Origin: a virus
Lineage: Duplodnaviria; Heunggongvirae; Uroviricota; Caudoviricetes
Length of the DNA: 54,238 nt
Reading direction: 5' to 3' (one strand)
IMG/VR virus record: IMGVR_UViG_2541047842_000005
How positions within the stretch are numbered: the stretch's first letter is position 1; every line of letters begins with the position of its first letter. Under the pieces are notes generated by a model. That model did not search any database, had not been told where the DNA came from, and saw only the letters and a list, made by a program, of their open reading frames with translations. Positions 17,745 through 49,700 of this stretch are shown here, piece by piece. The translations under genes were made by a program, and so were the position numbers.

Positions 17745-17981
17745 ATGGAGCTAATAAACATTGTTGTTAAATGTACTCAATCAAGCGTCGATTTTTTCAC
17801 TGAAGGTAAAAAATATTCAGGTTTTATAAAGCATGGGTGCTTTGCTTTCATTCTACAAGACGATCTTGTATCTGATTTCGACGACGCCGACGCATGGCGA
17901 TTAGTCCAGTATTTCCCGTCAAAAAATGAGTATTTTTTGCAGGGTCATTTTAAAACTCGGTTTAAGGTGGTAGAGAAATGA
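17745..17981 (+). CDS. small protein, member of the F-x-E-G-K-x-Y paralogue family
   Basis: 78 aa; FFTEGKKYSGF then ILQDDLVSDF; track start 17733 is a GTG. Confidence 0.4.
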   Translation: MELINIVVKCTQSSVDFFTEGKKYSGFIKHGCFAFILQDDLVSDFDDADAWRLVQYFPSKNEYFLQGHFKTRFKVVEK

Positions 17982-18160
17982 AAAACGAAATTAAAGATCT
18001 GCAAATAGATGTTCAACGTGACGAGCATGATTTAGCGACAGTCAGACGAATCCAGGCTTTTCACATGCAGGAATTACTTGCGCTGAAAGAGCTTGAAAGA
18101 AAACTGGTGCAAACCATTTCTGATCGCAAACGCCTTATTGCTCGCTATGGGGGCAAATAA
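17978..18160 (+). CDS. hypothetical protein (60 aa)
   Basis: Compact ORF; predicted coiled-coil-like sequence. Confidence 0.4.
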   Translation: MKNEIKDLQIDVQRDEHDLATVRRIQAFHMQELLALKELERKLVQTISDRKRLIARYGGK

Positions 18161-18888
18161 TGAATTTAGAATCCATTCTGAAATTCCACTTTCCCAAATC
18201 ACCGCGATTATCAGGCGAAAGCCGGGGAACATCCCCGGATGCACTTAATACGACGGATGCGCTTACCGCCGCTGGTATGGCGCAATCGCGCGTAGAGCTT
18301 GGCTATAGTGCTTTTTTAGGGAAAATGGAGCTATCGCAAGCTGAAAAACACAGGGCCGTAATTTTGCTTACAGAGCGTTTAAGGGTTATGGCGAAAGATT
18401 ACGAATACGTGATGGAATTAAATGAAGAACAACGCAATGATCTTATTATTCTTGTTGCCGTTTTCGCGTTTCGGGATTACTGCCAAAGTGCGGCTACCGA
18501 AAAGGTTTGCCCTAAGTGCGGAGGTAACGGGCTTTTACCGAATCCATATTGTGAATACACATCGACAGTTTGCTCGCGGTGCAACGGCAAAGGCTACGTT
18601 AAAAACCATTGCCAGAGGTGCAAGGGGCGTGGCGAAGTACCGGATAAAGCAGCCAGCGAAGCGGCGGAAATGCCAGTATTCAAAACGTGCCAGCATTGCG
18701 GCGGGCGCGGGTACTCGCGTTTCCCTGTAGATCTTGTCCGGCAGGCGGTTAATCAGCTTGTTTTCCAGGTAAGCCGATCAACATGGTGGAAGAAATACCG
18801 CGCTTTCTATGAAGACGCCATTGCTGAATTGTTCAAGGAAGAGGCGCGGGCTGATAACGAAATTAAACGAGTTACGCGGGGTGAATGA
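18160..18888 (+). CDS. putative late antiterminator Q-like protein with four CxxCxGxG zinc-finger repeats
   Basis: 242 aa; CPKCGGNG, CSRCNGKG, CQRCKGRG, CQHCGGRG; position directly after ninG-rusA as Q in lambdoid phages; family assignment is from memory. Confidence 0.45.
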   Translation: MNLESILKFHFPKSPRLSGESRGTSPDALNTTDALTAAGMAQSRVELGYSAFLGKMELSQAEKHRAVILLTERLRVMAKDYEYVMELNEEQRNDLIILVAVFAFRDYCQSAATEKVCPKCGGNGLLPNPYCEYTSTVCSRCNGKGYVKNHCQRCKGRGEVPDKAASEAAEMPVFKTCQHCGGRGYSRFPVDLVRQAVNQLVFQVSRSTWWKKYRAFYEDAIAELFKEEARADNEIKRVTRGE

Positions 18889-20259: not shown

Positions 20260-20480
20260 AAATCTGGCAGGGTATCGACGTAGTTGATAATGAATTGTCT
20301 ATGTTCGCCACTAACGGGAAACGCGTGGTGATCGCTACATGGACGCGCAACCATGATGATATAGCTTTTCGTCGCAAGGCTGCGGAGTGGCTTTTCTCTG
20401 ATGAAGGCTACACGATGAATATCTCCCAGCTTGCCAGAATGAAGGATGAAAAGCTGGTTGATAGTTACACAACTGCATAG
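20250..20480 (+). CDS. hypothetical protein (76 aa)
   Basis: Compact ORF. Confidence 0.4.
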   Translation: MELKIWQGIDVVDNELSMFATNGKRVVIATWTRNHDDIAFRRKAAEWLFSDEGYTMNISQLARMKDEKLVDSYTTA

Positions 20481-20490
20481 TGGGGCAAAT

Positions 20491-20724
20491 ATGTGTATCT
20501 ATGAACACAAGCGGGATAAAACCCGCTTTTTTGTTCGTGCTGGCGTGGCTTACCAGTATCACGACTGCGGATATATCGAGGCGCTTGCTTACGATCTGGA
20601 CTTCGAACAAGAAAAAGAATGGTTCGATTTCAAAATTTACCGGAAGCGTAAACCGACGCGCGACGAGCGACACGCTATCCGGGACTTTTTAATCAGCATA
20701 GACCGCTGGGAGACAGAGGAATGA
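20491..20724 (+). CDS. hypothetical protein (77 aa)
   Basis: Track start 20446 overlaps the previous gene; ATG 20491 with SD GTGGGG. Confidence 0.4.
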   Translation: MCIYEHKRDKTRFFVRAGVAYQYHDCGYIEALAYDLDFEQEKEWFDFKIYRKRKPTRDERHAIRDFLISIDRWETEE

Positions 20725-21008
20725 GAGCGAAGAAAACAGCAGATCAGAAAGCGTTAGTTATCACTACAACTGATGTGTCGTTATTCACGAAGGGTGAAGA
20801 AATAGATCTTAAATTACTTTTCGGCATGTTTGAGCCACACGAAAAGCCGTGGTTCGTGCATGAAGACAAACAGGGAAATATGCGCGTAGTAGTGCCGGAC
20901 AAAAACAGCGACATATTTTTTGCTATTCCAGACCCGTTACATGACGGTGAATTGCTGGCGGTATTGTTGATCGCTGATGCTGTTACTTATAAAGGGAAAG
21001 AAATATGA
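20721..21008 (+). CDS. hypothetical protein (95 aa)
   Basis: ATGA overlap with the upstream stop. Confidence 0.4.
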   Translation: MRAKKTADQKALVITTTDVSLFTKGEEIDLKLLFGMFEPHEKPWFVHEDKQGNMRVVVPDKNSDIFFAIPDPLHDGELLAVLLIADAVTYKGKEI

Positions 21009-21232
21009 AAGTTAAATTCTTGCACGATCACGGCTACCCATCATTAAAACGCGTGGTAGGGGAAACGGTAGACGTTGTTCATTCTGATGATGTGACCTGC
21101 GTCATTTTGGGTAAAGACCTTATCGCTCACGGTGCTGATGATTACTACATTAACCCGGCGTGGTCATATACGTTTAGCCTTGGCGACTTCGTAGGCGATA
21201 AGGGGCGCGGCTTGCAAGTAGTCGAGGGTTAA
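21005..21232 (+). CDS. hypothetical protein (75 aa)
   Basis: ATGA overlap with the upstream stop. Confidence 0.4.
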   Translation: MKVKFLHDHGYPSLKRVVGETVDVVHSDDVTCVILGKDLIAHGADDYYINPAWSYTFSLGDFVGDKGRGLQVVEG

Positions 21233-21236
21233 TATC

Positions 21237-21452
21237 ATGGACGTTTACGAAGATTTATACCTTCAAACAAATACCAGCACTTTTTATTTTTTGAAAAACG
21301 GCGTCGTATATCGCAGCGATGACGGGGTAATAATGAAAGAGTGGCTATTTAAACGCAAAGACCTACTTGATGACCTGGTTTTTGCCGGGATATTCCGTAA
21401 ACGTCCGGCTAACCTGGAAGAAGAAATGCTGATCGACGAGGTATTAAAATGA
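21237..21452 (+). CDS. hypothetical protein (71 aa)
   Basis: Contains FLKNGVVYRSDDG, resembling the paralogue family motif. Confidence 0.4.
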   Translation: MDVYEDLYLQTNTSTFYFLKNGVVYRSDDGVIMKEWLFKRKDLLDDLVFAGIFRKRPANLEEEMLIDEVLK

Positions 21453-21694
21453 AAGTGAATTATTTCAGGGCAAAAGACAAGGCAACAGGAAAGCGGGTGG
21501 CTATCCTGGTTAATGAAGCAAATTATATGTTTGTTCTCCAGCCGTGGTGCATAGCTGACTATAACGATGATTATCGCCGTCACGCTGCGCGGCGGGCGGT
21601 CGGGATGAAAGGCTGGCAGCCTCGCGACATGCTTAATTACTGCGACTGGAATCTGATAGCAAAATACACGGTCGATTATAAAGGGGTTTTCTGA
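21449..21694 (+). CDS. hypothetical protein (81 aa)
   Basis: ATGA overlap with the upstream stop. Confidence 0.4.
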   Translation: MKVNYFRAKDKATGKRVAILVNEANYMFVLQPWCIADYNDDYRRHAARRAVGMKGWQPRDMLNYCDWNLIAKYTVDYKGVF

Positions 21695-21906
21695 TGCAAG
21701 TTAAATGCTCATACTCAAGCAATGACAGTGTTTTCACGATTGGGAGTATTTATGACGTTCACATCGTTTATGGCAATGAAGCACACACAATGAGTAATTG
21801 CCTTGCCTTGATTGATAATCATGACGAAATATGGGTATTCAGGCCGAGCTATGAAGGCGGTGAAATATCCGGTGTAGGTTTTGCTGCCAGCTTTGAACGT
21901 TATTAA
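21694..21906 (+). CDS. paralogue family member A (70 aa)
   Basis: FTIGSIYDVH ... LIDNHDEIWVFR. Confidence 0.4.
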   Translation: MQVKCSYSSNDSVFTIGSIYDVHIVYGNEAHTMSNCLALIDNHDEIWVFRPSYEGGEISGVGFAASFERY

Positions 21907-21916
21907 AGGGGCAACA

Positions 21917-22174
21917 ATGAAACATTTATATTTTGAGGTATTGCAGACGCGCGACCGCAATATTTTTGAAGAAGGGAAGATCTATTGCGGCGTTCAACTC
22001 CACGGCGCACCGGGCGGTGATGGTGCAATGGCGATAACTGGCGATGATGATAAAGTTTATTTCGCTTATGTTAGCCATATCAATAACGCCGCTGGTTTGT
22101 ATATTTATCGCATAGTGCATGATTTCCGTGAGATCGCGGAGTTTTGCGCCCGCGAAGGCAGTAAACCGGAATAA
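21917..22174 (+). CDS. paralogue family member B (85 aa)
   Basis: FEEGKIYCGV ... AITGDDDKVYFA; track start 21881. Confidence 0.4.
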   Translation: MKHLYFEVLQTRDRNIFEEGKIYCGVQLHGAPGGDGAMAITGDDDKVYFAYVSHINNAAGLYIYRIVHDFREIAEFCAREGSKPE

Positions 22175-22184
22175 GTGAGGTGCT

Positions 22185-22424
22185 ATGAATCGGAAACATA
22201 GATACCAGTGCACATACTCACGATGCAGCGCGTTTTTTAAGAATGGCAAGATCTACGAGGTTGACGCGGCATTGGTTGACGCAAAGGATCAGGAATATAT
22301 TCATGCCATTACTGACGACCAGGGGCAGTTATGGCGATTTTATAAGATGGGTTGTGGCACGGCGCTTGTTTATGCGCGTGCTGGTGGTGGTGCTTTTGCT
22401 GCGTTTTCGTATGTAGGGGTATGA
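22185..22424 (+). CDS. paralogue family member C (79 aa)
   Basis: FFKNGKIYEV ... AITDDQGQLWRF. Confidence 0.4.
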   Translation: MNRKHRYQCTYSRCSAFFKNGKIYEVDAALVDAKDQEYIHAITDDQGQLWRFYKMGCGTALVYARAGGGAFAAFSYVGV

Positions 22425-22645
22425 AAATGATTTTAACGTGTAACGAATCGAAATTGGGCTGTTTTGAGGAAGGCGTACAGTACACGGCTGAAAAACCGAT
22501 GGGATTGTCTCCTAAATTTCCGTTTATCGTCGTGACTGACACTTACGGTCACTTATGGTATGCAGGGCCGCTAGGCGGTATTGGTCGTTATGTTGTCCGT
22601 AGTTCGGATGGGGCGATGAAGGTTACTTTTACGGAAGAAACGTAA
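22421..22645 (+). CDS. paralogue family member D (74 aa)
   Basis: FEEGVQYTAE ... VVTDTYGHLWYA; ATG 22421 overlaps the upstream stop; track start 22352 is an unlikely extension. Confidence 0.4.
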   Translation: MKMILTCNESKLGCFEEGVQYTAEKPMGLSPKFPFIVVTDTYGHLWYAGPLGGIGRYVVRSSDGAMKVTFTEET

Positions 22646-22701
22646 ATGTGATCTGTATCACAAGGTTTACGAAATGGCATTGTTTCGGCAGTGCCATTTT
22701 G

Positions 22702-23408
22702 TTGTGCACAGAAAACCCCCAGCTAGGCTGGGGGTTCCGGAAAGCTTTCAGCTTTGAGCCAGTTATTAAAACCCCTTTTGATTTGTTAAAACACCTTGCG
22801 GTCTGGCAACTGCAAGTGTCAAACAAGAAATCAAAAGGGGGTCCCAATGGGGAACGAAAAGAGCTTAGCGCACACCCGATGGAACTGTAAATATCACATA
22901 GTTTTTGCGCCAAAATACCGAAGACAGGTGTTCTACAGAGAGAAGCGTAGAGCAATAGGCAGTATTTTGAGAAAGCTGTGTGAGTGGAAAAGCGTACGGA
23001 TTCTGGAAGCTGAATGCTGTGCAGATCATATCCATATGCTTGTGGAGATCCCGCCTAAAATGAGCGTATCCGGGTTTATGGGATATCTGAAAGGGAAAAG
23101 CAGTCTGATGCTTTACGAGCAGTTTGGTGATTTGAAATTCAAATACAGGAACAGGGAGTTCTGGTGCAGAGGGTACTACGTCGATACAGTGGGTAAGAAC
23201 ACGGCGAAGATACAGGATTACATAAAGCACCAGCTTGAAGAGGATAAAATGGGAGAGCAGTTATCGATTCCCTATCCGGGCAGCCCGTTTACGGGCCGTA
23301 AGTAACGAAGTTGGATGCAAATGTCAGATCGTGTGCGCCTGTTAGGGCGCGGCTGGTAAGAGAGCCTTATAGGCGCATTTGAAAAACCTCCGGCTATGCC
23401 GGAGGATA
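22702..23408 (+). mobile_element. IS200 (IS200/IS605 family) insertion sequence
   Basis: Contains a tnpA colinear with IS200 TnpA; perfect left-end hairpin CCCCCAGC-TAG-GCTGGGGG at 22716-22734, RBS-sequestering inverted repeat at about 22772-22822, right-end hairpin CCTCCGGC-TAT-GCCGGAGG at about 23388-23406; boundaries estimated from the expected ~707 bp length, +/-10 bp. Confidence 0.7.
22847..23305 (+). CDS. tnpA: IS200 transposase TnpA (HUH Y1 transposase)
   Basis: 152 aa from MGNEKSLAHTRWNCKYHIVFAPKYRRQVFY; HxH motif ADHIHMLVEIPP and C-terminal catalytic region RNREFWCRGYYVDTVG match IS200 TnpA; the track ORF 22796-23305 includes an upstream extension. Confidence 0.9.
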   Translation: MGNEKSLAHTRWNCKYHIVFAPKYRRQVFYREKRRAIGSILRKLCEWKSVRILEAECCADHIHMLVEIPPKMSVSGFMGYLKGKSSLMLYEQFGDLKFKYRNREFWCRGYYVDTVGKNTAKIQDYIKHQLEEDKMGEQLSIPYPGSPFTGRK

Positions 23409-23454
23409 TTTATTATAAAGAAGCTGAAGAGAGAACGATGCGGAGGGTAGAAAA

Positions 23455-23733
23455 ATGAAACGCTGGATTAACAAAGAAGTCGAATCTCGCTTAAACGCAT
23501 TTTGGGAGATGGTGGAGAAAGAAGACCCAGCACACGCTGCAAGCCCTTACCTGAACAACATCGAATATCACTACATTGCAGCAAACAACGCGGAGTTCGA
23601 AGAAGAAGGTGGAGCCGACAAGTTCGCACAAAGCAACGCATTCAACAACGCAAACGAAATGATGATGGCAGTCATCGAACAGGCAGAGGAAGACTACGAA
23701 TGCAAATCACTTGAATTCGCACGTATGGCATAA
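23455..23733 (+). CDS. hypothetical protein (92 aa)
   Basis: SD GGAGGG upstream; acidic. Confidence 0.45.
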   Translation: MKRWINKEVESRLNAFWEMVEKEDPAHAASPYLNNIEYHYIAANNAEFEEEGGADKFAQSNAFNNANEMMMAVIEQAEEDYECKSLEFARMA

Positions 23734-23743
23734 GGGGGAAACC

Positions 23744-23884
23744 ATGAACGCTAACGCTAAATATCCGGCCTGGGTTTTCGAACTGTACGCAAGATACTTT
23801 GAATTACTGGCACAAGGTGAAGAAGCATTAAGCATTGACGAGTACGCGGAGTGCTTAGGGTTTAAAGGAGACGAAGAAGCATAA
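23744..23884 (+). CDS. small hypothetical protein (46 aa)
   Basis: SD AAGGGGG upstream; followed by hairpin GGGGCC-GGAT-GGCCCC; not in the ORF track. Confidence 0.3.
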   Translation: MNANAKYPAWVFELYARYFELLAQGEEALSIDEYAECLGFKGDEEA

Positions 23885-23927
23885 AACACGGGGCCGGATG
23901 GCCCCATCAAATCAGAAGGGTGTAATC

Positions 23928-24227
23928 ATGAAAAGCGCTAAATTTATTGCTTGCTGTTTTGTTGAAGTTCCTAACGATGATGTTTTCTGTAATTATGAAT
24001 TTAAAGACAGCTTAGGCAGATCTCATGTTGTTGTTGGTAAGCGCGGCGACTGGTTATATATCACTGATGGAGACAGGATCTTCACTAAAAACCAGTTGTT
24101 AATAATAAAGGCAGAAAATGATGAAATACCAGTAGGTAATATGGGGATTATGAATTATCACGCTGGTTTATTGTTAAAGCACGATACGGTAAACAAAGCG
24201 CGTAGCTTACCTGGTGCGGAGTTTTAA
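23928..24227 (+). CDS. hypothetical protein (99 aa)
   Basis: Track start 23898; ATG 23928 with SD GAAGGGTG. Confidence 0.4.
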   Translation: MKSAKFIACCFVEVPNDDVFCNYEFKDSLGRSHVVVGKRGDWLYITDGDRIFTKNQLLIIKAENDEIPVGNMGIMNYHAGLLLKHDTVNKARSLPGAEF

Positions 24228-24230
24228 TTT

Positions 24231-24485
24231 ATGGAAATAATCAAAATATGGCGCGGCAACAGTAAGGCTGACGGTGAGTTTTGCCGCGTCGTTCAATTCG
24301 TAAATTATGGTAGGTTTTACGAGCTACCTTATGACAAAAGGAAAGATGATTTCTATTTAAGCGAGTCAATCCCGGTGCACAGAAAAATAAAGGCGCTTAG
24401 GGGGTTATTGCGAAGTGGTTTTTATTCTTGCCCTAACCCATTAAACAATCCTGAACTGGTAGCTATTTTTTACGAAGGAGAATAG
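24231..24485 (+). CDS. hypothetical protein (84 aa)
   Basis: Compact ORF. Confidence 0.4.
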   Translation: MEIIKIWRGNSKADGEFCRVVQFVNYGRFYELPYDKRKDDFYLSESIPVHRKIKALRGLLRSGFYSCPNPLNNPELVAIFYEGE

Positions 24486-24488
24486 ACA

Positions 24489-24908
24489 ATGTCTAAATTT
24501 ATCAGCGTTAAAGTTTTCCGTGGCACTTTACCGAACGAAGAAAGATTAGGACAATTTGCCGGGCAACCTAGTGCATGTTTCCGTGTAGCCACTGAAGACG
24601 ATGCGCATGTTAAATGCTTCCACGTATCGGAACCGCCTTTTAATGCAGACCATCTTGAAGACCCGGATAGAATTAAAAGCCTAGTTTTTGCCTATCTGAT
24701 GTTCCAGGGTATCGCTAATATGGAAGTGGAATTGCTTGGCGCTGAACTGGCGGCAGAATACAAAGTGACTGAAGGCGAAAACGGAGGGGTGGAAATTGAG
24801 CGCATCAAAATAAACCTTACAAGATCCGGTGTAAAGGCGAATACCATGGGTTTACGATTGGTTGCGAATACCTGGGCCACATTGGGTACGGCCCTTTCGG
24901 TGAGTTAG
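24489..24908 (+). CDS. hypothetical protein (139 aa)
   Basis: ORF in the island; no motif recognised. Confidence 0.45.
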   Translation: MSKFISVKVFRGTLPNEERLGQFAGQPSACFRVATEDDAHVKCFHVSEPPFNADHLEDPDRIKSLVFAYLMFQGIANMEVELLGAELAAEYKVTEGENGGVEIERIKINLTRSGVKANTMGLRLVANTWATLGTALSVS

Positions 24909-24910
24909 GG

Positions 24911-25048
24911 ATGAATACGATGGACGACGACGGCGACAGCAGGACGCTTGATCTTGATTCTGATGATTTCGAATACATCCCTCCAGTTACTTACCGTGCC
25001 GTTGATGATTTCCTGGCTGAACATGAAGACGAGGGCGATGATGATTGA
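24911..25048 (+). CDS. small acidic protein (about 42-45 aa)
   Basis: MNTMDDDGDSRTLDLDSDDFEY...EHEDEGDDD; alternative ATG at 24920; not in the ORF track. Confidence 0.25.
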   Translation: MNTMDDDGDSRTLDLDSDDFEYIPPVTYRAVDDFLAEHEDEGDDD

Positions 25049-25235
25049 ATGCCTTATAGCTGTGATTGTTTTGCTTTATATCGCTGGCGCTATCCTGATG
25101 TCTTGTTTTATTAAGTTTAGCGGAGCTGAACCTGGCGGCCTTGAGATTCCTTTTTGGCCTGTGACTGTGTTTATCGCTTTCTTCGACGCTACGGCAGGGC
25201 AGATCAATCGAGCTATTAAGGAGCGCAAGAAATGA
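25038..25235 (+). CDS. small membrane protein (65 aa)
   Basis: MMIECLIAVIVLLYIAGAILMSCFIKF; SD GAGGG upstream; the track ORF 24948-25235 has an unlikely extension. Confidence 0.35.
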   Translation: MMIECLIAVIVLLYIAGAILMSCFIKFSGAEPGGLEIPFWPVTVFIAFFDATAGQINRAIKERKK

Positions 25236-25411
25236 TTGAAGATGGGGTGTACGCAACAGTAGTAGACGGGCTGTTTTACCGCGTAGAAGGTGATGATATT
25301 CGCATCCGCGTTGGCGGTGGTGAGTGGGTAGCGCCAATCATTAAGACGACGCGAGAAACAATTAAAATATTTCTTGATGCTGGTGAACTGGTGAGGGTTA
25401 GCGACCTATGA
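25232..25411 (+). CDS. small hypothetical protein (59 aa)
   Basis: MIEDGVYATVV...; ATGA overlaps on both sides; N-terminus resembles that of the next gene. Confidence 0.3.
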   Translation: MIEDGVYATVVDGLFYRVEGDDIRIRVGGGEWVAPIIKTTRETIKIFLDAGELVRVSDL

Positions 25412-32760: not shown

Positions 32761-34032
32761 GTGAGTAAAGAATTAATTCAGGTTAATACCAAATTAACCG
32801 CTAATACCATACGCCGGGAAACGTATAACGGGCGGGAACATATTGTTGTTCCGTCCTACACGTTACCCTTTAACATCGTAATGAACCGGGAATATTACCC
32901 GGAAGCTGAAATTATCGCTAATTACCAGTCACTGGAGGGTACGCTTGCCCCGCTGGGCCATCCTACCGTTGACGGTAAATTTGTTTCAGCATTTAGCCCG
33001 GAAGGATTAAACACGGGTTTTTGTGGTGCGTGGAACAGAAACGTTGAGTTACGCGGCAACCGTGTTTATGTGGAAAAATGGGTGGATGTGGAAACCGCCA
33101 GCCATTCAAGCCAGGGCCGCGAATTATTAGCCCGACTGGAAGCACTGGAGAAAGGAGAAAGCAAAGATCCTATCTGGTCGTCCGTCGCTGTATATCGCCA
33201 GCGTATGCCAGCCACCGAAAAAATGAAAGCCCAGGGTGCTGACCATGTAGTGAAAATCATGTCGATCGACCATGACGCTATCTTGCTGCATGAGCCGCCA
33301 GCCGCTTCGCCGGAACAGGGCGTAGGCTTAATGGTTAATACCGACCAGGCGAAGCCGTTAATGGCGGTGGCAATGAAAGAAAATAGCTATCGCACACTTG
33401 AAAAACAGTTAACCGCTGCCGCGCGGGAAATGTTCCCTGACGCTGATTACGTATACGTGGTGGACTTCACTGATAGAGAGGTGACGATCGCCACTAATGA
33501 AAACTGTGCGGAAAGATACAACTACGAAAAACAGGCTGATAAAATTATTCTCAATAATGGCGAGCTTGCAACCAACGAGGAAAGTAAATCCTGGTTTACG
33601 CAGTTCGCTGAACACCTTTCTAATCTTTTCTCCCTGAATGAAAAAATTAAGGCCAATAAATCGGAGGACGATCCCATGCCTTTGACCAAAGAAGAACGCG
33701 CCGAACTGGTAAAAGAAATTAACGAAGGCTTATCCGCCAATATCGCTAATGCAGTAGCAGAGACATTAAAACCAGTACAGGCAAGCGTTGAAGAATTACA
33801 GACCAATCAGAAAGCGATTAAAGAAGAGATCGCAGCAAACGCAAATAAAGAAGAAGCAGAAAAACGCGCCGCAGTAGCAAAAGTACACGGCGAAATTGTT
33901 GCTAACGCATTAAGTGGTGAAGCGTTAGACGCAATGTTTAAATCCCTGGGTAAAGCAGCACCAATGGCAGCAAACTCAGCCGCTGGTGGAAATAAACCTG
34001 CCACCCCTGACATTAACAACTATTTCGCATAA
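32761..34032 (+). CDS. putative scaffolding / prohead maturation protein
   Basis: About 423 aa; the track ORF starts at a TTG (32746), probable GTG start at 32761 with SD GGAG; Ala/Glu/Lys-rich coiled-coil C-terminal half; sits between the MuF-like and capsid genes. Confidence 0.45.
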   Translation: MSKELIQVNTKLTANTIRRETYNGREHIVVPSYTLPFNIVMNREYYPEAEIIANYQSLEGTLAPLGHPTVDGKFVSAFSPEGLNTGFCGAWNRNVELRGNRVYVEKWVDVETASHSSQGRELLARLEALEKGESKDPIWSSVAVYRQRMPATEKMKAQGADHVVKIMSIDHDAILLHEPPAASPEQGVGLMVNTDQAKPLMAVAMKENSYRTLEKQLTAAAREMFPDADYVYVVDFTDREVTIATNENCAERYNYEKQADKIILNNGELATNEESKSWFTQFAEHLSNLFSLNEKIKANKSEDDPMPLTKEERAELVKEINEGLSANIANAVAETLKPVQASVEELQTNQKAIKEEIAANANKEEAEKRAAVAKVHGEIVANALSGEALDAMFKSLGKAAPMAANSAAGGNKPATPDINNYFA

Positions 34033-37357: not shown

Positions 37358-37834
37358 ATGTCTCAGACTTGCGAAAAAGGCACGTTTACAGGCCGTGACG
37401 TTGCTGTATTCTTCGCTATCGCTTGTCCAAATGCGAAGCCGGAAGCTGAAGCGTACAAAGCGTTAGGCATGATGCGTGGTAAAACACTTTCCGTTGAATG
37501 GGAAACCGCTGACGCCACCGCCGATAAATCAGCCGATTACACGAAAGAATCAATGGTTACTTACAAATCCGTTTCTTTCTCCGGCGACGGTGTGTCCCGC
37601 ACTGAAGAAATCCATAATCAGAAAGCGCTGAAACGCCACGTAATTACGCCAGGTGAAACCACCGGATCACAACCTTATGTATGGCTGAAGATCGTTTCTC
37701 CTGTAGACGTAACTGAAGGCCCATTCCTTTGCACTTCCTTTAAAGAAGAAGATCCGCATGATGATGTTTCCACCTGGTCTATTGAGTGCGAAAGCGCTGG
37801 CAAGGTAACGGTAGGCGACGTTCCGCCAGCATAA
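37358..37834 (+). CDS. major tail protein (tail tube)
   Basis: 158 aa; position upstream of the chaperone and tape measure genes; followed by a terminator hairpin. Confidence 0.6.
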   Translation: MSQTCEKGTFTGRDVAVFFAIACPNAKPEAEAYKALGMMRGKTLSVEWETADATADKSADYTKESMVTYKSVSFSGDGVSRTEEIHNQKALKRHVITPGETTGSQPYVWLKIVSPVDVTEGPFLCTSFKEEDPHDDVSTWSIECESAGKVTVGDVPPA

Positions 37835-37852
37835 CAGCCAATATTAACAATC

Positions 37853-37877
37853 GGGGCCATTTGGCCCCTTTTCTTTT
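37853..37877 (+). terminator. rho-independent terminator/attenuator after the major tail gene
   Basis: GGGGCC-ATTT-GGCCCC followed by TTTTCTTTT. Confidence 0.55.
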
Positions 37878-37889
37878 AAGGTGAATACT

Positions 37890-38588
37890 ATGATCCATGT
37901 TCGTACAGGACAATTTGCTGCCGTGGTGAACGGTAAGCGCTATGAGTTTAATCCTTGCTTTGCTGCGATGGCTAAAATCGGCAACGATAGTGAGCTTGTC
38001 GAATATTTCGCACTTATCCACGGCGGCAAATATCCATCACGATTGCCAGCAGATCCAGACCTACGCAATCGCATTCTGGCGCGGTGTTATGGTGAAATAG
38101 TTCAGACATCAATGCACATCCTGAAATGTTGCTCAGACGACGAAATAGGCCCGTTATTGGGCGAATGCTGGTTTACTCCTTCGGGTAAGTTAAAGTTAAA
38201 GCCCGGATTAATGCCGATCGAGGATATCATCACGCTTGCGCAGCACTGCATGTACCACGGTCTTATTGGTGATGGCCCGGAAGAAGAGTCCGGGGAAATC
38301 CCGGAAGGGGAATATAAGCCGACTTTTAACGTCCTTGAATTCGTCTATTCTGCCGTTGCTCACCTGGGCTTGTCAGAATCGGAAGCATGGAATATGACAA
38401 TGACCGGATATAGGGCCGCTGTACGCGCTAAAACGCCGCCAGACGAAAGAAACGAGAAAAGCAAGCCAAACATTCACATAAATAAACGTGCTTATGACGA
38501 GCAAATGGAGGCCGCTAAAAAGGCACTAGAAAGAATGAAAAATCGTGAGCAAGAAAAGCCCGGTAGATCCGGGCGTTTTGCTAATTGA
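37890..38588 (+). CDS. putative tail assembly chaperone
   Basis: 232 aa from ATG 37890 (SD AAGGTG; track start 37881 is a GTG); position between the major tail and tape measure genes. Confidence 0.4.
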   Translation: MIHVRTGQFAAVVNGKRYEFNPCFAAMAKIGNDSELVEYFALIHGGKYPSRLPADPDLRNRILARCYGEIVQTSMHILKCCSDDEIGPLLGECWFTPSGKLKLKPGLMPIEDIITLAQHCMYHGLIGDGPEEESGEIPEGEYKPTFNVLEFVYSAVAHLGLSESEAWNMTMTGYRAAVRAKTPPDERNEKSKPNIHINKRAYDEQMEAAKKALERMKNREQEKPGRSGRFAN

Positions 38589-42345: not shown

Positions 42346-42516
42346 TTACTCAAATCTTGTATACCCTCTTTCAATTTTCCCTCCGTGTACACTTCTGGCA
42401 AATACCGCGTCAGTATACCTAAAAAATGGGCATGTATATGTATCACCTTTACTATCCATCCATTTTAGCACCCATGCCATACGTTTTACATTGCTTTTAT
42501 TTGCCGGGTTTTTCAT
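42346..42516 (-). CDS. small hypothetical protein (56 aa), moron cluster 1
   Basis: MKNPANKSNVKRMAWVLKWMDSKGDTYTCPFF...; strong SD GGAGGAAAATAAA-ATG; not in the ORF track. Confidence 0.35.
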   Translation of the reverse strand: MKNPANKSNVKRMAWVLKWMDSKGDTYTCPFFRYTDAVFARSVHGGKIERGYTRFE

Positions 42517-42634
42517 TTTATTTTCCTCCGCAAATTACAATCTTCCGTTTCTTGCTATATAGCTGCGAGAAAACATTACCAACCAAATATTCCAGATCTC
42601 CCTCCAGGTGAATTTATCGTCCTCCATACCCACC

Positions 42635-44788: not shown

Positions 44789-45493
44789 ATGCGCAATATT
44801 CCGAGAGAGATGATTATTGATTCCGTCGATGCCGGAGTTGGCGCGGTCATTGACTTATTTGAACTGGACCTTACTCCCCTGGGAGGCGAGGTTATCCGCT
44901 TCCATTCCGGCGCGAACGGCTATTACGGCCAGGTTATCTGGAAGGGAGTAGCTTACAACAGCTACCCGATCGAGGCGACGGGCTTCGAAATGAAAAATGA
45001 GGGTGTTTATTCACGGCCTCAAATGGTTGTAGCCAATATCGGCGGACTCATTACGGGGATGAACAACGATTTTAACGACCTTAGAGGAATGAAGGTTACG
45101 CGCCGCCAGGTGGAGGTGAAATATCTTGACGCCGTTAACTTCCCTAACGGTAATCCAGACGCAGATCCATCTATTGAGGCTGTATCTTTTTACGTCATTG
45201 AAGCAATGAGCGAAGAAACAGCGGATCAGGTGCAGTATGAACTGTCAACGCCAATTGATGCAGATAAAGCTGTCATCCCTGGGCGCACCATCCTTGCTGA
45301 CGTTTGCCAGTGGCAATACAGAGGCGACGGGTGTATGTACGCTGGCGGACCAGTAGCAAACGATAAAGACGAGCCGACAAGCGATCCTAAAGCCGACAGA
45401 TGTAGCCACCGTCTGAGCGGTTGTCGTTTACGTTTCCCGCGTCCAAATCCGTTACCAATTTCCTGTTTCCCCGGTTCAAGTAAGGTGGGCTAA
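44789..45493 (+). CDS. minor tail protein L-like
   Basis: 234 aa; C-terminal Cys cluster (CQWQYRGDGC...CSHRLSGC) as in lambda gpL; order M-L-K-I-J. Confidence 0.75.
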   Translation: MRNIPREMIIDSVDAGVGAVIDLFELDLTPLGGEVIRFHSGANGYYGQVIWKGVAYNSYPIEATGFEMKNEGVYSRPQMVVANIGGLITGMNNDFNDLRGMKVTRRQVEVKYLDAVNFPNGNPDADPSIEAVSFYVIEAMSEETADQVQYELSTPIDADKAVIPGRTILADVCQWQYRGDGCMYAGGPVANDKDEPTSDPKADRCSHRLSGCRLRFPRPNPLPISCFPGSSKVG

Positions 45494-46713: not shown

Positions 46714-49700
46714 ATGAGTAGCGGCGGCGGCAAAGCCAAAACACCAACATTATTGAACGATAACCTGTATCACAAACAGTTTTATCGTGTTTTAGATATT
46801 CTCAGCGAAGGGCCGATATACGGTCCGGTAAACCAGAAAGCGCCATTGAATGACGTGATGCTTAATGACACTCCTGTTACTGACGCAAACGGGAATACAT
46901 CAATTCCGGGGATTAGTATAGCCTGGCGCAACGGCACGGCTGACCAATCGCCGATTAATGGTTTTAACGCCATTGAGTCAACCGTTATTGTCAACGCAAA
47001 GGTAACTCACGACACACCAATAATCAGGACTGTTTCAGATCCAAACGTTACCCGCGTCAGGTTGAATCTTGGTGTTGATGCTCTCGTTCAGTCAGATGAA
47101 AAGGGCAATCAATATAATACATCCGTCATGTTGATGGTTGATGTTAAACCGTCATCATCTTCTACGTGGTCGCTGATTAAAGACATACACATTGGCCCTG
47201 GTAAACAAAGCGGTGAATACCTGGAAGCTCACATCATTAAAGCGCCGGATGAAAAACCGTTTGATATTCGCGTTCGTCGCATAACACCAGACAGCAACGG
47301 CGATCTATTGCGGAATGATACGCGGTGGAGTAGTTACAGCGAAATAATAGATGATAATCTGTCTTATCCTCATACCGCTGTAGCTGGCGCCGTAATTGAC
47401 CATGATCAGTATACTGATACGCCTACCCGCACCTATCACCTTCGCGGCCTGATTGTTGATGTGCCTGACAACTACAACCCTGAAACGCGCACATATTCAG
47501 GTTTATGGCTTGGTGGATTTAAAAAGGCGTATACCAATAACCCTGCATGGCTTTTCCGGTATCTGGTTAAAAACGAGCGCTTTGGACTTGCTCGACATGC
47601 TGGTTACATTGATGTTGATGATGGCGCTTTGTACGTGCTTTCTCAATACTGCGATCAGTTGGTTGATGATGGCTATGGTGGCCTTGAACCTCGCATGACG
47701 CTTAACGCTTACATTACGGAGCAAATGAGCGCCCGCGACCTACTGGATAACATCGCAGGTATGTTCCGTGGTATCGCGTTATGGGACGGACAACGTCTTA
47801 CCGTGATGATTGATGCGCCACAAGATCCAATCGCCACCATCACAAATGCAAACGTCGTTGATGGCGCGTTTACTCGTTCAAGTATCGCACGCGCAGAATG
47901 CTACAACGCCGTGATCGTATCCTGGACTGACCCTGAAAACGGCTGGGAGCAATCAAAAGAATATGTCGCAGATGATAAACTAATCGCCCGTGATGGTTAT
48001 AACGAAACCACGTTGGAGGCGTTCGGTTGCACTTCACGCGGGCAAGCGCACCGCGCTGGTAAATGGCTGATCGAAACAGCGAAACGCGAGCCGTCAAAAT
48101 TCACATTTAAAATGGCCCGTGACGCCATTCACTTTACGCCGGGGGATATAATCGAGATCCTCGATAATAATCGCGCAGGCGCTCGTTTAGGCGGTCGCAT
48201 CGTGGCGAACAATGGCAGAGCGATCACGGTCGACAAGGTTGATTCTGAATATATCGCGGCTGGCGACACCATCAGCTTACTTGATAGCGATGGTAAATTT
48301 AAAAAACACCAGATCATCGGAGTTAACGGGAACATTATCACCCTTGCAGCCGCCCCGGCGTGGATTCGTAACGGCACTGTTTTTGCTGTATCAACCAACG
48401 CAGCAAAACCCGTTTTATGTCGAATCACCAGTGTAGCAGAAACAGAAAATAACAGCGTATACACCATCGAGGCCGCACAGCATGATCCACATAAGCAGGC
48501 CGTAGTCGATAATGGCACAATCTTCGAGATCAATAACGACACGCTTAATCACTTCCGCGTGCCGAACATTGAAAATCTGAAGGTGTTAAACGTTGGATCT
48601 GAAACGGTTCAATGTCGCGCAACATGGGAAACACAGACGACAACGCGTCGCCTGACCTTTGAGATTCGCGTGTATAACGCCGAAGGCGCTGTAGTTAAAA
48701 GCTACGAAACCACGAATTACAGTTATGATTTTTATGGCATTGATGCTGGCAACTACTCATTAGGCATTCGTGGCAGAAATGACACGGGCATGAAGGGTGC
48801 GGAAAGCATTGTCGATCTGGTTATTGGCGCACCAGCGGCCCCAGTTGGCGTTAATTGGGTTCCCGGTGTATTCCAGGCTACAGTTTACCCGATCAGCAGA
48901 ACAACGCTCACCACTGATACCAGTTACGAGTTTTATTACTCAGGTGAAACGCAGATCACTGATCCGGCATCAATAACCACTAAAGCACAATATACCGGGC
49001 GTGGTCATCAGTGGACGTTTGGCGGCATGAATACAGGTCACACATATTACGTTTATGTGCGCGCGCGTAACGCTTTTGGTGTGTCTGACTTTGTGGAAGC
49101 GTCAGGTAAGCCAACAGAAAACTTTGATGAAATTACCGATTACGTCACCAAAGACGTAATGAATTCCAAACAATTTAAAGAAATGGTTGGTGACATTAAA
49201 GATCTAGGCGACCGCACTGATCTTATCGAAAGCGCTACGAATGACCTTAAAACTGCTACTGACAACCTCAAAACTGCAACTGATAATCTGACCAACATAA
49301 CTGACGATTTAAGGACTGAAACTGACAACCTAACCATAGAAACAGGATCAATAAAAGCTGATACTGATACGCTCAAAAAAGAAACGGAAGATCTTTATAA
49401 AAAAGTTAAGGAAAACGCCGATGATATTGGACAGCATGAGTCGAGAATCGACTCGCTGGAGGTGTCTAGCGAAAAAGTTGGCAGCGAACTGGCGCAAGCA
49501 AAAGCAAGTCTGCAAAACGCCTCACTTGCTCTTATTAATAACTCGCTTGCACAGACTAACACTCGCGTAACTCTTACCGCTCAGTACAAGAAAGGCAGGA
49601 CAGAGACGAAAGCGGAAATTGACCGCATTGACAACGTTATCGCTGAAGAGAAAAAAGCGACAGCGGAATCACTGGAAACCATCACGGCAGAAATGAATGT

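Follow-up and report, generated by a model that had tools for sequence, protein, structure and literature searches.

Organisation of the locus

In this study, we describe a family of small genes carried by the viral stretch IMGVR_UViG_2541047842_000005, the whole of which (54,238 nucleotides) we will call the window. Four consecutive genes of this family, A to D, form an array between a conserved anchor gene and an insertion sequence (IS) of the IS200 type, and a fifth one, E, stands apart from them (Table 1). We will argue that these five genes belong to one family, that the array is a site of gene exchange between related prophages, and that the proteins are predicted to adopt the fold of Gp54, a protein of phage Bas11 that is sensed by a bacterial defence system. 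Judged by its sequence, the window is an Escherichia coli prophage of the mEpimmI (mEp021-like) type. The region from 21400 to 22700 is 100% identical to a prophage of E. coli MS 21-1, and it shows 82-89% identity to mEp044, mEp013, mEp010, mEp554, mEp021, mEp515 and MagusPhagus, relatives that are included in the mEpimmI group of Nus-dependent, non-lambdoid temperate coliphages (PMC11893012). DNA matching the block was found in 34 of 5426 complete E. coli genomes, and at least 80% of the block is covered in 10 of them.

On the plus strand, ninG and rusA are followed by gene E, by a gene of 60 amino acids (aa) and by the gene of a Q-type antiterminator, after which about 25 closely spaced small genes lead to the holin, lysozyme and spanin genes. 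In mEpimmI prophages, the array is located in a rightward operon, with the Q-type antiterminator on one side and the lysis genes on the other. It begins at the stop codon of the anchor gene, which overlaps the start of A as TGATG; this junction and TGATTATG are translationally coupled, and a Shine-Dalgarno sequence precedes each of the genes A to D. The start of D is more likely at 22427 than at 22421, where it would overlap the stop codon of C as ATGA, because the former has a good Shine-Dalgarno spacing and is the start retained in MS 21-1 by the Prokaryotic Genome Annotation Pipeline (PGAP). The tight packing, the Shine-Dalgarno sequences, the stop/start overlaps and the purifying selection detailed below make A to D and E real, expressed-looking genes.

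This is particularly relevant for C, which PGAP leaves uncalled in MS 21-1. In the locus of that prophage (L001), an annotation gap extends from 20775 to 21028, and L001 20786-21025 corresponds to gene C (window 22185-22424); L001 19838-20053, which corresponds to the open reading frame (ORF) 21237-21452 of the window, is likewise devoid of PGAP annotation. Both sequences are kept across dozens of loci with a low ratio of non-synonymous to synonymous substitution rates (dN/dS, 0.13-0.14), so both are probably genes that were missed. The RefSeq record of MS 21-1 would therefore call for a correction, since it omits a gene which is a constrained member of the family.

Downstream of D, a terminator-like hairpin closes the array. 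The records of mEp044 and mEp010 carry a 'terminator' feature beneath the match to this region, and a simple terminator scan gave no report of the hairpin at 22672-22703. The IS200 comes next and is missing from the otherwise near-identical MS 21-1 prophage. An initial annotation of the window had the block of genes end exactly where the IS200 is inserted, which is roughly the case: D stops at 22645 and the IS starts at 22704, with the hairpin in between.

Table 1. Coordinates of the family genes, of their neighbours and of related genes in phage Bas11 (window positions, except for the last row)
Feature	Position	Strand	Description
Gene E	17745-17981	+	78 aa; dispersed, between rusA and next gene
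Q-type antiterminator gene	18160-18888	+	Pfam PF03589, E 5e-32
Candidate distant member	20721-21008	+	95 aa; PHROG 33175
Anchor gene	21449-21694	+	81 aa; PHROG 38609 (E 2e-53); conserved
Gene A	21694-21906	+	70 aa; V-K-C ... F-x-x-G-x-x-Y ... h-h-x-D-x-x-x-x-W ... A-x-F
Gene B	21917-22174	+	85 aa; most divergent of A-D
Gene C	22185-22424	+	79 aa
Gene D	22427-22645	+	72 aa (74 aa from alternative start 22421)
Terminator-like hairpin	22672-22703	+	AAATGGCATTG / CAGTGCCATTT and T-tract; read from sequence; closes array
IS200	22704-23414	+	~711 bp; BLAST breakpoints against MS 21-1 locus L001; unrelated to the family
IS200 tnpA (Y1 transposase)	~22847-23305		Pfam Y1_Tnp (PF01797), E 5e-38
Putative subfamily M member or remnant (acidic tail)	24800-25048	+	PHROG 25234; called ORF 24911-25048
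Bas11 relatives	45147-45338, 37578-37943 (minus strand), 42369-42554, 33759-33929, 47216-47653		Accession MZ501085.1

One ancient and very divergent family

The initial annotation had proposed that A to D form a family on the basis of short motif strings, and the four strings that it quoted are all found in the translations where it placed them. The consensus of the family comprises a (V/I)-x-C near the N-terminus, an F-x-x-G-x-x-Y, an h-h-x-D-x-x-G-x-x-W/Y located about 20 residues further, and a C-terminal A-x-F, while the positions outside this consensus vary freely between subfamilies. The proteins are roughly 60-85 aa long and mostly acidic (isoelectric points of 4.1-6.0 in most members), C being the sole basic one. 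B lacks the conserved cysteine, has a tyrosine in place of the tryptophan and carries an insertion ahead of the last strand. The pairwise BLAST matches among the copies are weak (28-34% identity over 29-51 residues, at most 25 bits), and the significance of the resemblance was therefore tested with profiles.

The anchor gene (PHROG 38609) was used as a bait to fetch 47 related viral loci, from which an ORF set was built, and six further subfamilies, H, I, J, K, L and M, were found at the same site in these loci. Each subfamily was then scored against a profile built without it, and each protein was compared with 1000 shuffled versions of itself. The hidden Markov model (HMM) scores amount to 33.9 bits for A, 19.0 for B, 41.6 for C, 12.9 for D and 19.5 for E, and for none of the five did any shuffle reach the real score, the best shuffles attaining 7.0-14.5 bits (9.5 bits in the case of B). 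Started from A, jackhmmer converges on A, B, C, E and H to L without matching a single decoy, three shuffled versions of each sequence being included. The comparison of subfamilies with hhalign gave 5e-6 for A-C, 3e-12 for A-K, 5e-5 for B-C (43 columns), 1e-4 for D-I (64 columns), 2e-4 for D-H, 4e-5 for E-A and 2e-5 for E-I, against values mostly above 1e-2 with unrelated neighbouring genes. By these sequence comparisons, A to D and E are one ancient, very divergent family of phage proteins.

The motif similarity thus withstands shuffling for the four consecutive genes and for the member that follows rusA, as the initial annotation had supposed. It had also named two weaker relatives, and these do not hold: the ORFs 21237-21452 (F) and 23928-24227 (G) score 1.6 and 1.2 bits, are equalled by 67 and 51 of their 1000 shuffles, respectively, and have no significant hhalign link to the family, so that five of the seven genes originally named are members. 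The anchor gene is not a member either (-1.3 bits against the family profile). Concerning existing models, no Pfam model matches A to E at its curated cut-off, and neither PADLOC nor NCBIfam gives a match at E <=0.01. PHROG 31142 clearly includes H (E 2e-44) and J (3e-9), two subfamilies of other phages; its matches to A (8e-5) and C (8e-7) are weak, E reaches 0.04, and B and D give none.

The likeness of the motifs could in principle be due to chance or composition, or the ORFs might not be genes at all. The low BLAST scores speak for this, as do the absence of C from the PGAP annotation of MS 21-1 and the fact that a window-based HMM, run against 1.84 billion cluster representatives, found just 25 matches at E <=1e-3, nearly all of them in the prophage group of the window. 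The 25 include some large repeat proteins, which were taken as spurious. On the other side stand the leave-one-out scores, the iterative searches free of decoys, dN/dS values of 0.04-0.29, and two independent structure models, of A and of D, that reach the same rare fold (see below). The chance explanation is effectively excluded, and the probability that we leave to it is minute.

A variable array of cassettes

The number of family copies that directly follow the anchor gene differs widely among the 49 loci that were compared: 9 loci have no copy, 13 have a single one, 4 have two, another 4 have three, 16 have four and 3 have five. The orders observed include H; K; J-H; A-B-C-D; H-C-D; H-B-C-D; H-A-B-C-D; L-A-B-C-D and L-A-D, among others, and the cassette in first position may be A, B, H, J, K or L. 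These cassettes are swapped exactly at gene boundaries, the TGA of the anchor gene directly abutting the start codon of the cassette that follows it. Conserved recombination sequences were sought at the cassette boundaries, and only the stop/start junctions were common to them. From this comparison of loci, the array at the anchor slot is dispensable; every scanned locus retains at least one family-type gene elsewhere, even where the slot is empty.

Exchange also appears to occur within the cassettes. Some genes are chimeras whose junctions fall at conserved motifs (TDTYGHLWYA, DDDGD, C-x-x-N-E and FTTG): in P0023, the N-terminal half comes from one D allele and the C-terminal half from another, in P0062, L and M sequences meet at DDDGD, and P0079 is an L/D hybrid. 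P0017 and L015:6246-6599 are further natural chimeras, the partner of a family member in such fusions being either another member or an adjacent gene. The sequences of the chimeras indicate recombination or deletion between paralogues. The placement of divergent paralogues in a phage accessory region, which the initial annotation had put forward, is thus corroborated by a gene-content hot spot with 0-5 copies and motif-joined chimeras, and its other proposal, a tandem diversification of the domain, is not supported in the sense of a recent tandem duplication. Indeed, A to D are not each other's closest relatives, as A is nearest to K (3e-12) and D is tied to the family mainly through H and I (1e-4 for the latter), two subfamilies that occur in other phages. 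The array consequently looks like an assortment of anciently diverged cassettes.

Small variable accessory clusters of phages, such as anti-CRISPR loci and the accessory regions of enterobacterial phages, usually hold unrelated proteins. The array resembles such clusters in its small genes, in their presence or absence at a fixed slot beside a conserved anchor, and in the mosaic exchange at gene boundaries, but it differs from the typical ones in that the occupants of its slot are paralogues sharing one fold.

Gene E represents a separate insertion polymorphism: 7 of the 49 loci, the window included, have it, and MS 21-1 lacks it. The comparison with the latter reveals a clean indel of about 230 base pairs (bp) between rusA and the next gene (L001 16326-16336), and the aligned flanks overlap by about 11 nucleotides at the junction, in the region of the Shine-Dalgarno sequence and start codon. 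This overlap suggests that E was exchanged at a short repeated junction sequence.

Selection was measured as the pooled Nei-Gojobori dN/dS among orthologues, and the values, obtained from small orthologue sets, are 0.20 for A, 0.21 for B, 0.13 for C (14 orthologues), 0.26 for D, 0.04 for E, 0.27 for H and 0.29 for L, with 0.11 for the anchor gene. The orthologues of A to E, H and L are under purifying selection. The initial annotation had considered the diversification of these genes as typical of an arms race; the values of A to D do not bear this out directly, since they are those of purifying selection and give no direct sign of positive selection among the few orthologues available, and the arms-race interpretation is to be taken as plausible.

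The predicted fold and its likeness to Gp54

Structures were predicted for A and D with AlphaFold2. The model of A, obtained from an alignment of 15 family sequences, has a mean predicted local distance difference test score (pLDDT) of 87.8 and contains six β-strands; the model of D, for which only D-type sequences were used as a guard against circularity, has a pLDDT of 81.6 and again six strands. Both models have the same top match in the PDB, which is Gp54 of phage Bas11 (9AXB). The modelled proteins are antiparallel six-stranded β-barrels of about 65 aa with a long β1-β2 loop, which are the features of the Gp54 fold. The conserved residues would be distributed along this barrel: strand β1 would bear (V/I)-x-C, the β1-β2 loop together with β2 would bear F-x-x-G-x-x-Y, the β3-β4 hairpin D-x-x-G-x-x-W/Y, and strand β6 A-x-F. 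According to these models, A and D share the otherwise rare fold of Gp54. We take the release of 9AXB, in November 2024, to postdate the training of the AlphaFold2 weights, and the match should therefore not be a memorised one.

Gp54 is a non-essential orphan protein of 66 aa whose fold has been described as 'very rare', and it triggers the CapRelSJ46 toxin-antitoxin defence by partly unfolding and adding strands to the pseudo-zinc-finger domain of the sensor (PMC11578894). Its close homologues from Bas5, Bas8, Bas10 and SECphi27 fail to activate CapRel, and its authors speculated that it might be an inhibitor of another defence system (PMC11578894). A 2026 paper in the same field lists it solely as a trigger. 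In order to compare the sequences, Gp54 was taken from MZ501085.1 (39780-39980, minus strand) together with nine homologues from Drexlerviridae genomes. The family profile does not significantly match either Gp54 alone or the nine-member Gp54 alignment (hhalign P of 0.05-0.3 over 7-15 columns), and Gp54 was not recruited by the iterative HMM search. The best local alignment consistently sets 'GIFKKGIEITID' of Gp54 on the F-x-x-G-x-x-Y-x-V of the family, and in this alignment, which is not significant, the invariant glycine of the family faces G24 of Gp54, the position that is altered by G24D, a mutation which escapes CapRel. The relation with Gp54, on the evidence of the models, is one of fold and not of sequence family. 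Gp54 matches PHROG 7421 only, whereas the window family falls in different PHROGs; it is also found as one copy per genome in lytic T1-like phages, whereas the window proteins are arranged in a tandem array. The two are alike in being dispensable, as far as the comparison of loci can tell for the window proteins (0-5 copies at the slot, and E in 7 of 49 loci).

Other small β folds were considered. SH3 domains have five strands, with a 3-10 helix instead of a sixth strand (PMC11578894), and the models do not correspond to the five-stranded barrel with RT and n-Src loops and a 3-10 helix that defines these domains. SH3-like small β-barrels, for instance the SH3 of RecD (5LD2), score far under the Gp54 match and have no sequence similarity to the family. 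The local pattern F-x-x-G-K ... D-G-x-l-Y is reminiscent of a single blade of the designed β-propellers termed 'Cake' (PDB 6TJB-6TJI), with a summed E value of 2e-13 for a nine-blade protein. This candidate was rejected, as each blade gives about 6.8 bits (an independent E of about 65), the low E value results from the summing of repeats, the window proteins consist of one domain each, and the predicted fold is a closed six-stranded barrel; the likeness of the blades was treated as a convergence of β-hairpin sequence patterns. A sequence-profile match to AcrIC4 (E 0.46) was not significant.

A small β-barrel may also bind nucleic acids, and the variable genes of mEpimmI phages have mostly been assigned to a 'regulation cluster' (PMC11893012). 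The family could consist of SH3-, KOW- or Sm-like barrels that would regulate phage transcription, or RNA or DNA transactions, within this regulatory cluster. The charge of the proteins argues against it, as most members are acidic (net charge of -1 to -7, and -17 for M), C alone is basic, and no basic residue is conserved across the family; moreover, a number of copies that varies from 0 to 5 is unexpected for a core regulator. We consider this explanation improbable.

Relatives in other phages

When the iterative search was run on the combined ORF set, it gave 89 matches, 20 of which are Drexlerviridae proteins, and no decoys. The relatives in T1-like phages comprise Bas11 gp71 (63 aa), the C-terminal domain of Bas11 gp48, and a 138-aa protein made of two domains in tandem; in pSf-2, a 212-aa relative has two domains followed by a C-terminal hydrophobic stretch resembling a membrane helix. 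These Drexlerviridae relatives are located in blocks of small genes without assigned function, and their phages are strictly lytic. Bas11 (L049, MZ501085.1) is the very phage of Gp54, and it thus carries sequence relatives of the family as well, gp71 and the C-terminal domain of gp48 being clear ones, while gp61, gp41 and the N-terminus of gp79 display the motif more weakly. It was also observed that gp48 and its homologues adjoin or lie near a gene for a Dcm-like or site-specific DNA methyltransferase in Bas11, KarlJaspers, LL5 and Supreme284.

A broadened profile retrieved 181 proteins at E <=1e-3 among 5.8 billion, from sources that include E. coli prophages, Klebsiella phages, Vibrio phage Vc1 and Enterobacter phage N5822. 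The named matches are hypothetical proteins or proteins of unknown function, with no precomputed Pfam domain among the matches listed. A word-indexed search with C alone returned only near-identical E. coli proteins. In PHROGs, the family is split over several unlinked clusters without assigned function, namely 31142 (H), 25234 (M and Bas11 gp61), 9181 (Bas11 gp71) and 10580 (the two-domain protein of pSf-2), and B, D and L match none. At the level of structure, a Foldseek search of BFVD yielded many uncharacterised small phage proteins, largely from Drexlerviridae, with template modelling scores of 0.6-0.79.

This distribution bears on two other explanations. In the first one, the genes would be prophage 'morons', or lysogenic-conversion genes, that help the host, for example by superinfection exclusion or by anti-phage defence. 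In keeping with such a role, they occupy a variable part of a temperate prophage and the array has its own terminator, while the sequence relatives of the obligately lytic Drexlerviridae are difficult to reconcile with it. In addition, PADLOC matches none of the proteins, no sigma-70-like promoter was found on the plus strand from 20292 to 25340, and the array is translationally coupled to the upstream phage gene. There is, in our opinion, little chance that this explanation is the right one.

In the second one, the proteins would be minor components of the virion or would be associated with its assembly. The mEp021 record has a 'virion structural protein' feature within the part that matches 21400-21695, where the anchor gene lies together with the last portion of the ORF before it, and a conserved virion protein has been described as mislocated outside the structural cluster (PMC11893012). 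Furthermore, one of the structural neighbours in BFVD is labelled 'putative minor capsid protein', and PHROG 14592 ('virion structural protein') weakly matches a two-domain relative from Drexlerviridae. These labels are unverified, the family members themselves carry no virion annotation, and a slot that is empty in 9 of 49 loci, with copies varying from 0 to 5, is not what one would expect of a virion component, so that a role in the particle seems very improbable.

A possible role as protein-binding modules

The interpretation that we favour, on a tentative basis, is that A to E are diversified accessory modules which bind proteins and act on those of the host or of its defences, the array constituting a repertoire of them. 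By analogy with Gp54, each copy would be a soluble, mostly acidic module for a different host or defence protein, and binding would take place through the variable surface, the edge of the β-sheet and the β1-β2 loop. The sole mechanistic precedent is Gp54 itself, which grips the zinc-finger-like domain of the CapRelSJ46 sensor by adding β-strands to it. Under this hypothesis, the phage could dispense with the array, which would supply a repertoire of factors that modulate the host and possibly counter its defences, and whose composition would be selected by the hosts that each phage meets. Taken as a whole, we find this statement possible at a little under an even chance, and its functional part, considered alone, is more doubtful.

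Several observations weigh against it. The only activity demonstrated for Gp54 is that a defence system senses it, which is not a function that serves the phage, and the sequence homology to Gp54 is undetectable in the hhalign comparison given above, no PHROG being common to both. The genes are downstream of the Q-type antiterminator, so that their expression may be late, which is unusual for counter-defence. The selection on orthologues is purifying and not diversifying. Finally, the 9 loci without a copy directly after the anchor gene do without the array, although each of them keeps a family-type gene elsewhere.

One can extend the favoured interpretation further and imagine that Gp54-like barrels are a widespread superfamily of metamorphic β-barrels that dock by β-strand addition on different immune sensors or host proteins, of which the sensing by CapRelSJ46 would be one visible case, and that mEpimmI phages shuffle up to five such modules to match the defences of their hosts. 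We regard this broader scenario as unlikely.

What emerges from this work is a family with the predicted fold of Gp54, which has members in T1-like phages and which mEpimmI prophages carry as a hypervariable array of cassettes; the paper describing the mEpimmI group makes no mention of this family (PMC11893012). If the models are right, the Gp54 fold is not an oddity and would be part of a larger set of proteins in enterobacterial siphoviruses. This set escapes the current annotation, being without any Pfam, NCBIfam or PADLOC model and spread over unlinked PHROGs, and it would include several genes in one genome, fusions of two domains in T1-like phages and the hypervariable array of gut E. 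coli prophages. The dozen or so natural variants present at one locus would provide a candidate set to address what Gp54-like proteins do for the phage, and also whether CapRel-type or other sensors recognise this fold more generally.

Further candidates and neighbouring features

Two other sequences rose above noise when the whole window was scanned in six frames with the family profile, and they may be connected to the family. The ORF 20721-21008 scores 12.7 bits against this profile, with none of its 1000 shuffles as good (11.9 bits and E 0.006 in the six-frame scan), and hhalign relates it to A (3e-3, 52 columns) and to the Gp54 family (4e-3); it may be a further, very distant member. The sequence 24800-25048 scores 9.0-10.1 bits and looks truncated. 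Its called ORF, 24911-25048, has an acidic tail and reads MNTMDDDGDSRTLDLDSDDFEYIPP...EGDDD, and the in-frame extension upstream of it (...YKIRCKGEYHGFTIGCEYLG...) corresponds to the N-terminal half of the domain. This upstream half is devoid of a start codon and overlaps the ORF 24489-24908 out of frame, while subfamily M genes of full length with their own ATG are found elsewhere (L012:8070-8321 and L019:7474-7695). Inspection by eye revealed no canonical -1 slippery heptamer by which the ORF 24489-24908 could be joined to the M frame, and the sequence may be either a remnant or a frameshifted product.

Concerning the neighbouring genes, the product of the Q-type antiterminator gene also matches the model of the DnaJ CXXCXGXG zinc finger (PF00684) with 33.2 bits, barely above the cut-off. 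The IS200 is bordered by TTGTT on its left and by TTATT-ATAAAG on its right, and its insertion lies directly 3' of the terminator hairpin. Further downstream, the adjacent ORFs 25232-25411 and 25408-25584 (58-59 aa) bear a weak mutual likeness, with 40% identity over 25 residues, and may be another pair of small paralogues, outside the barrel family.

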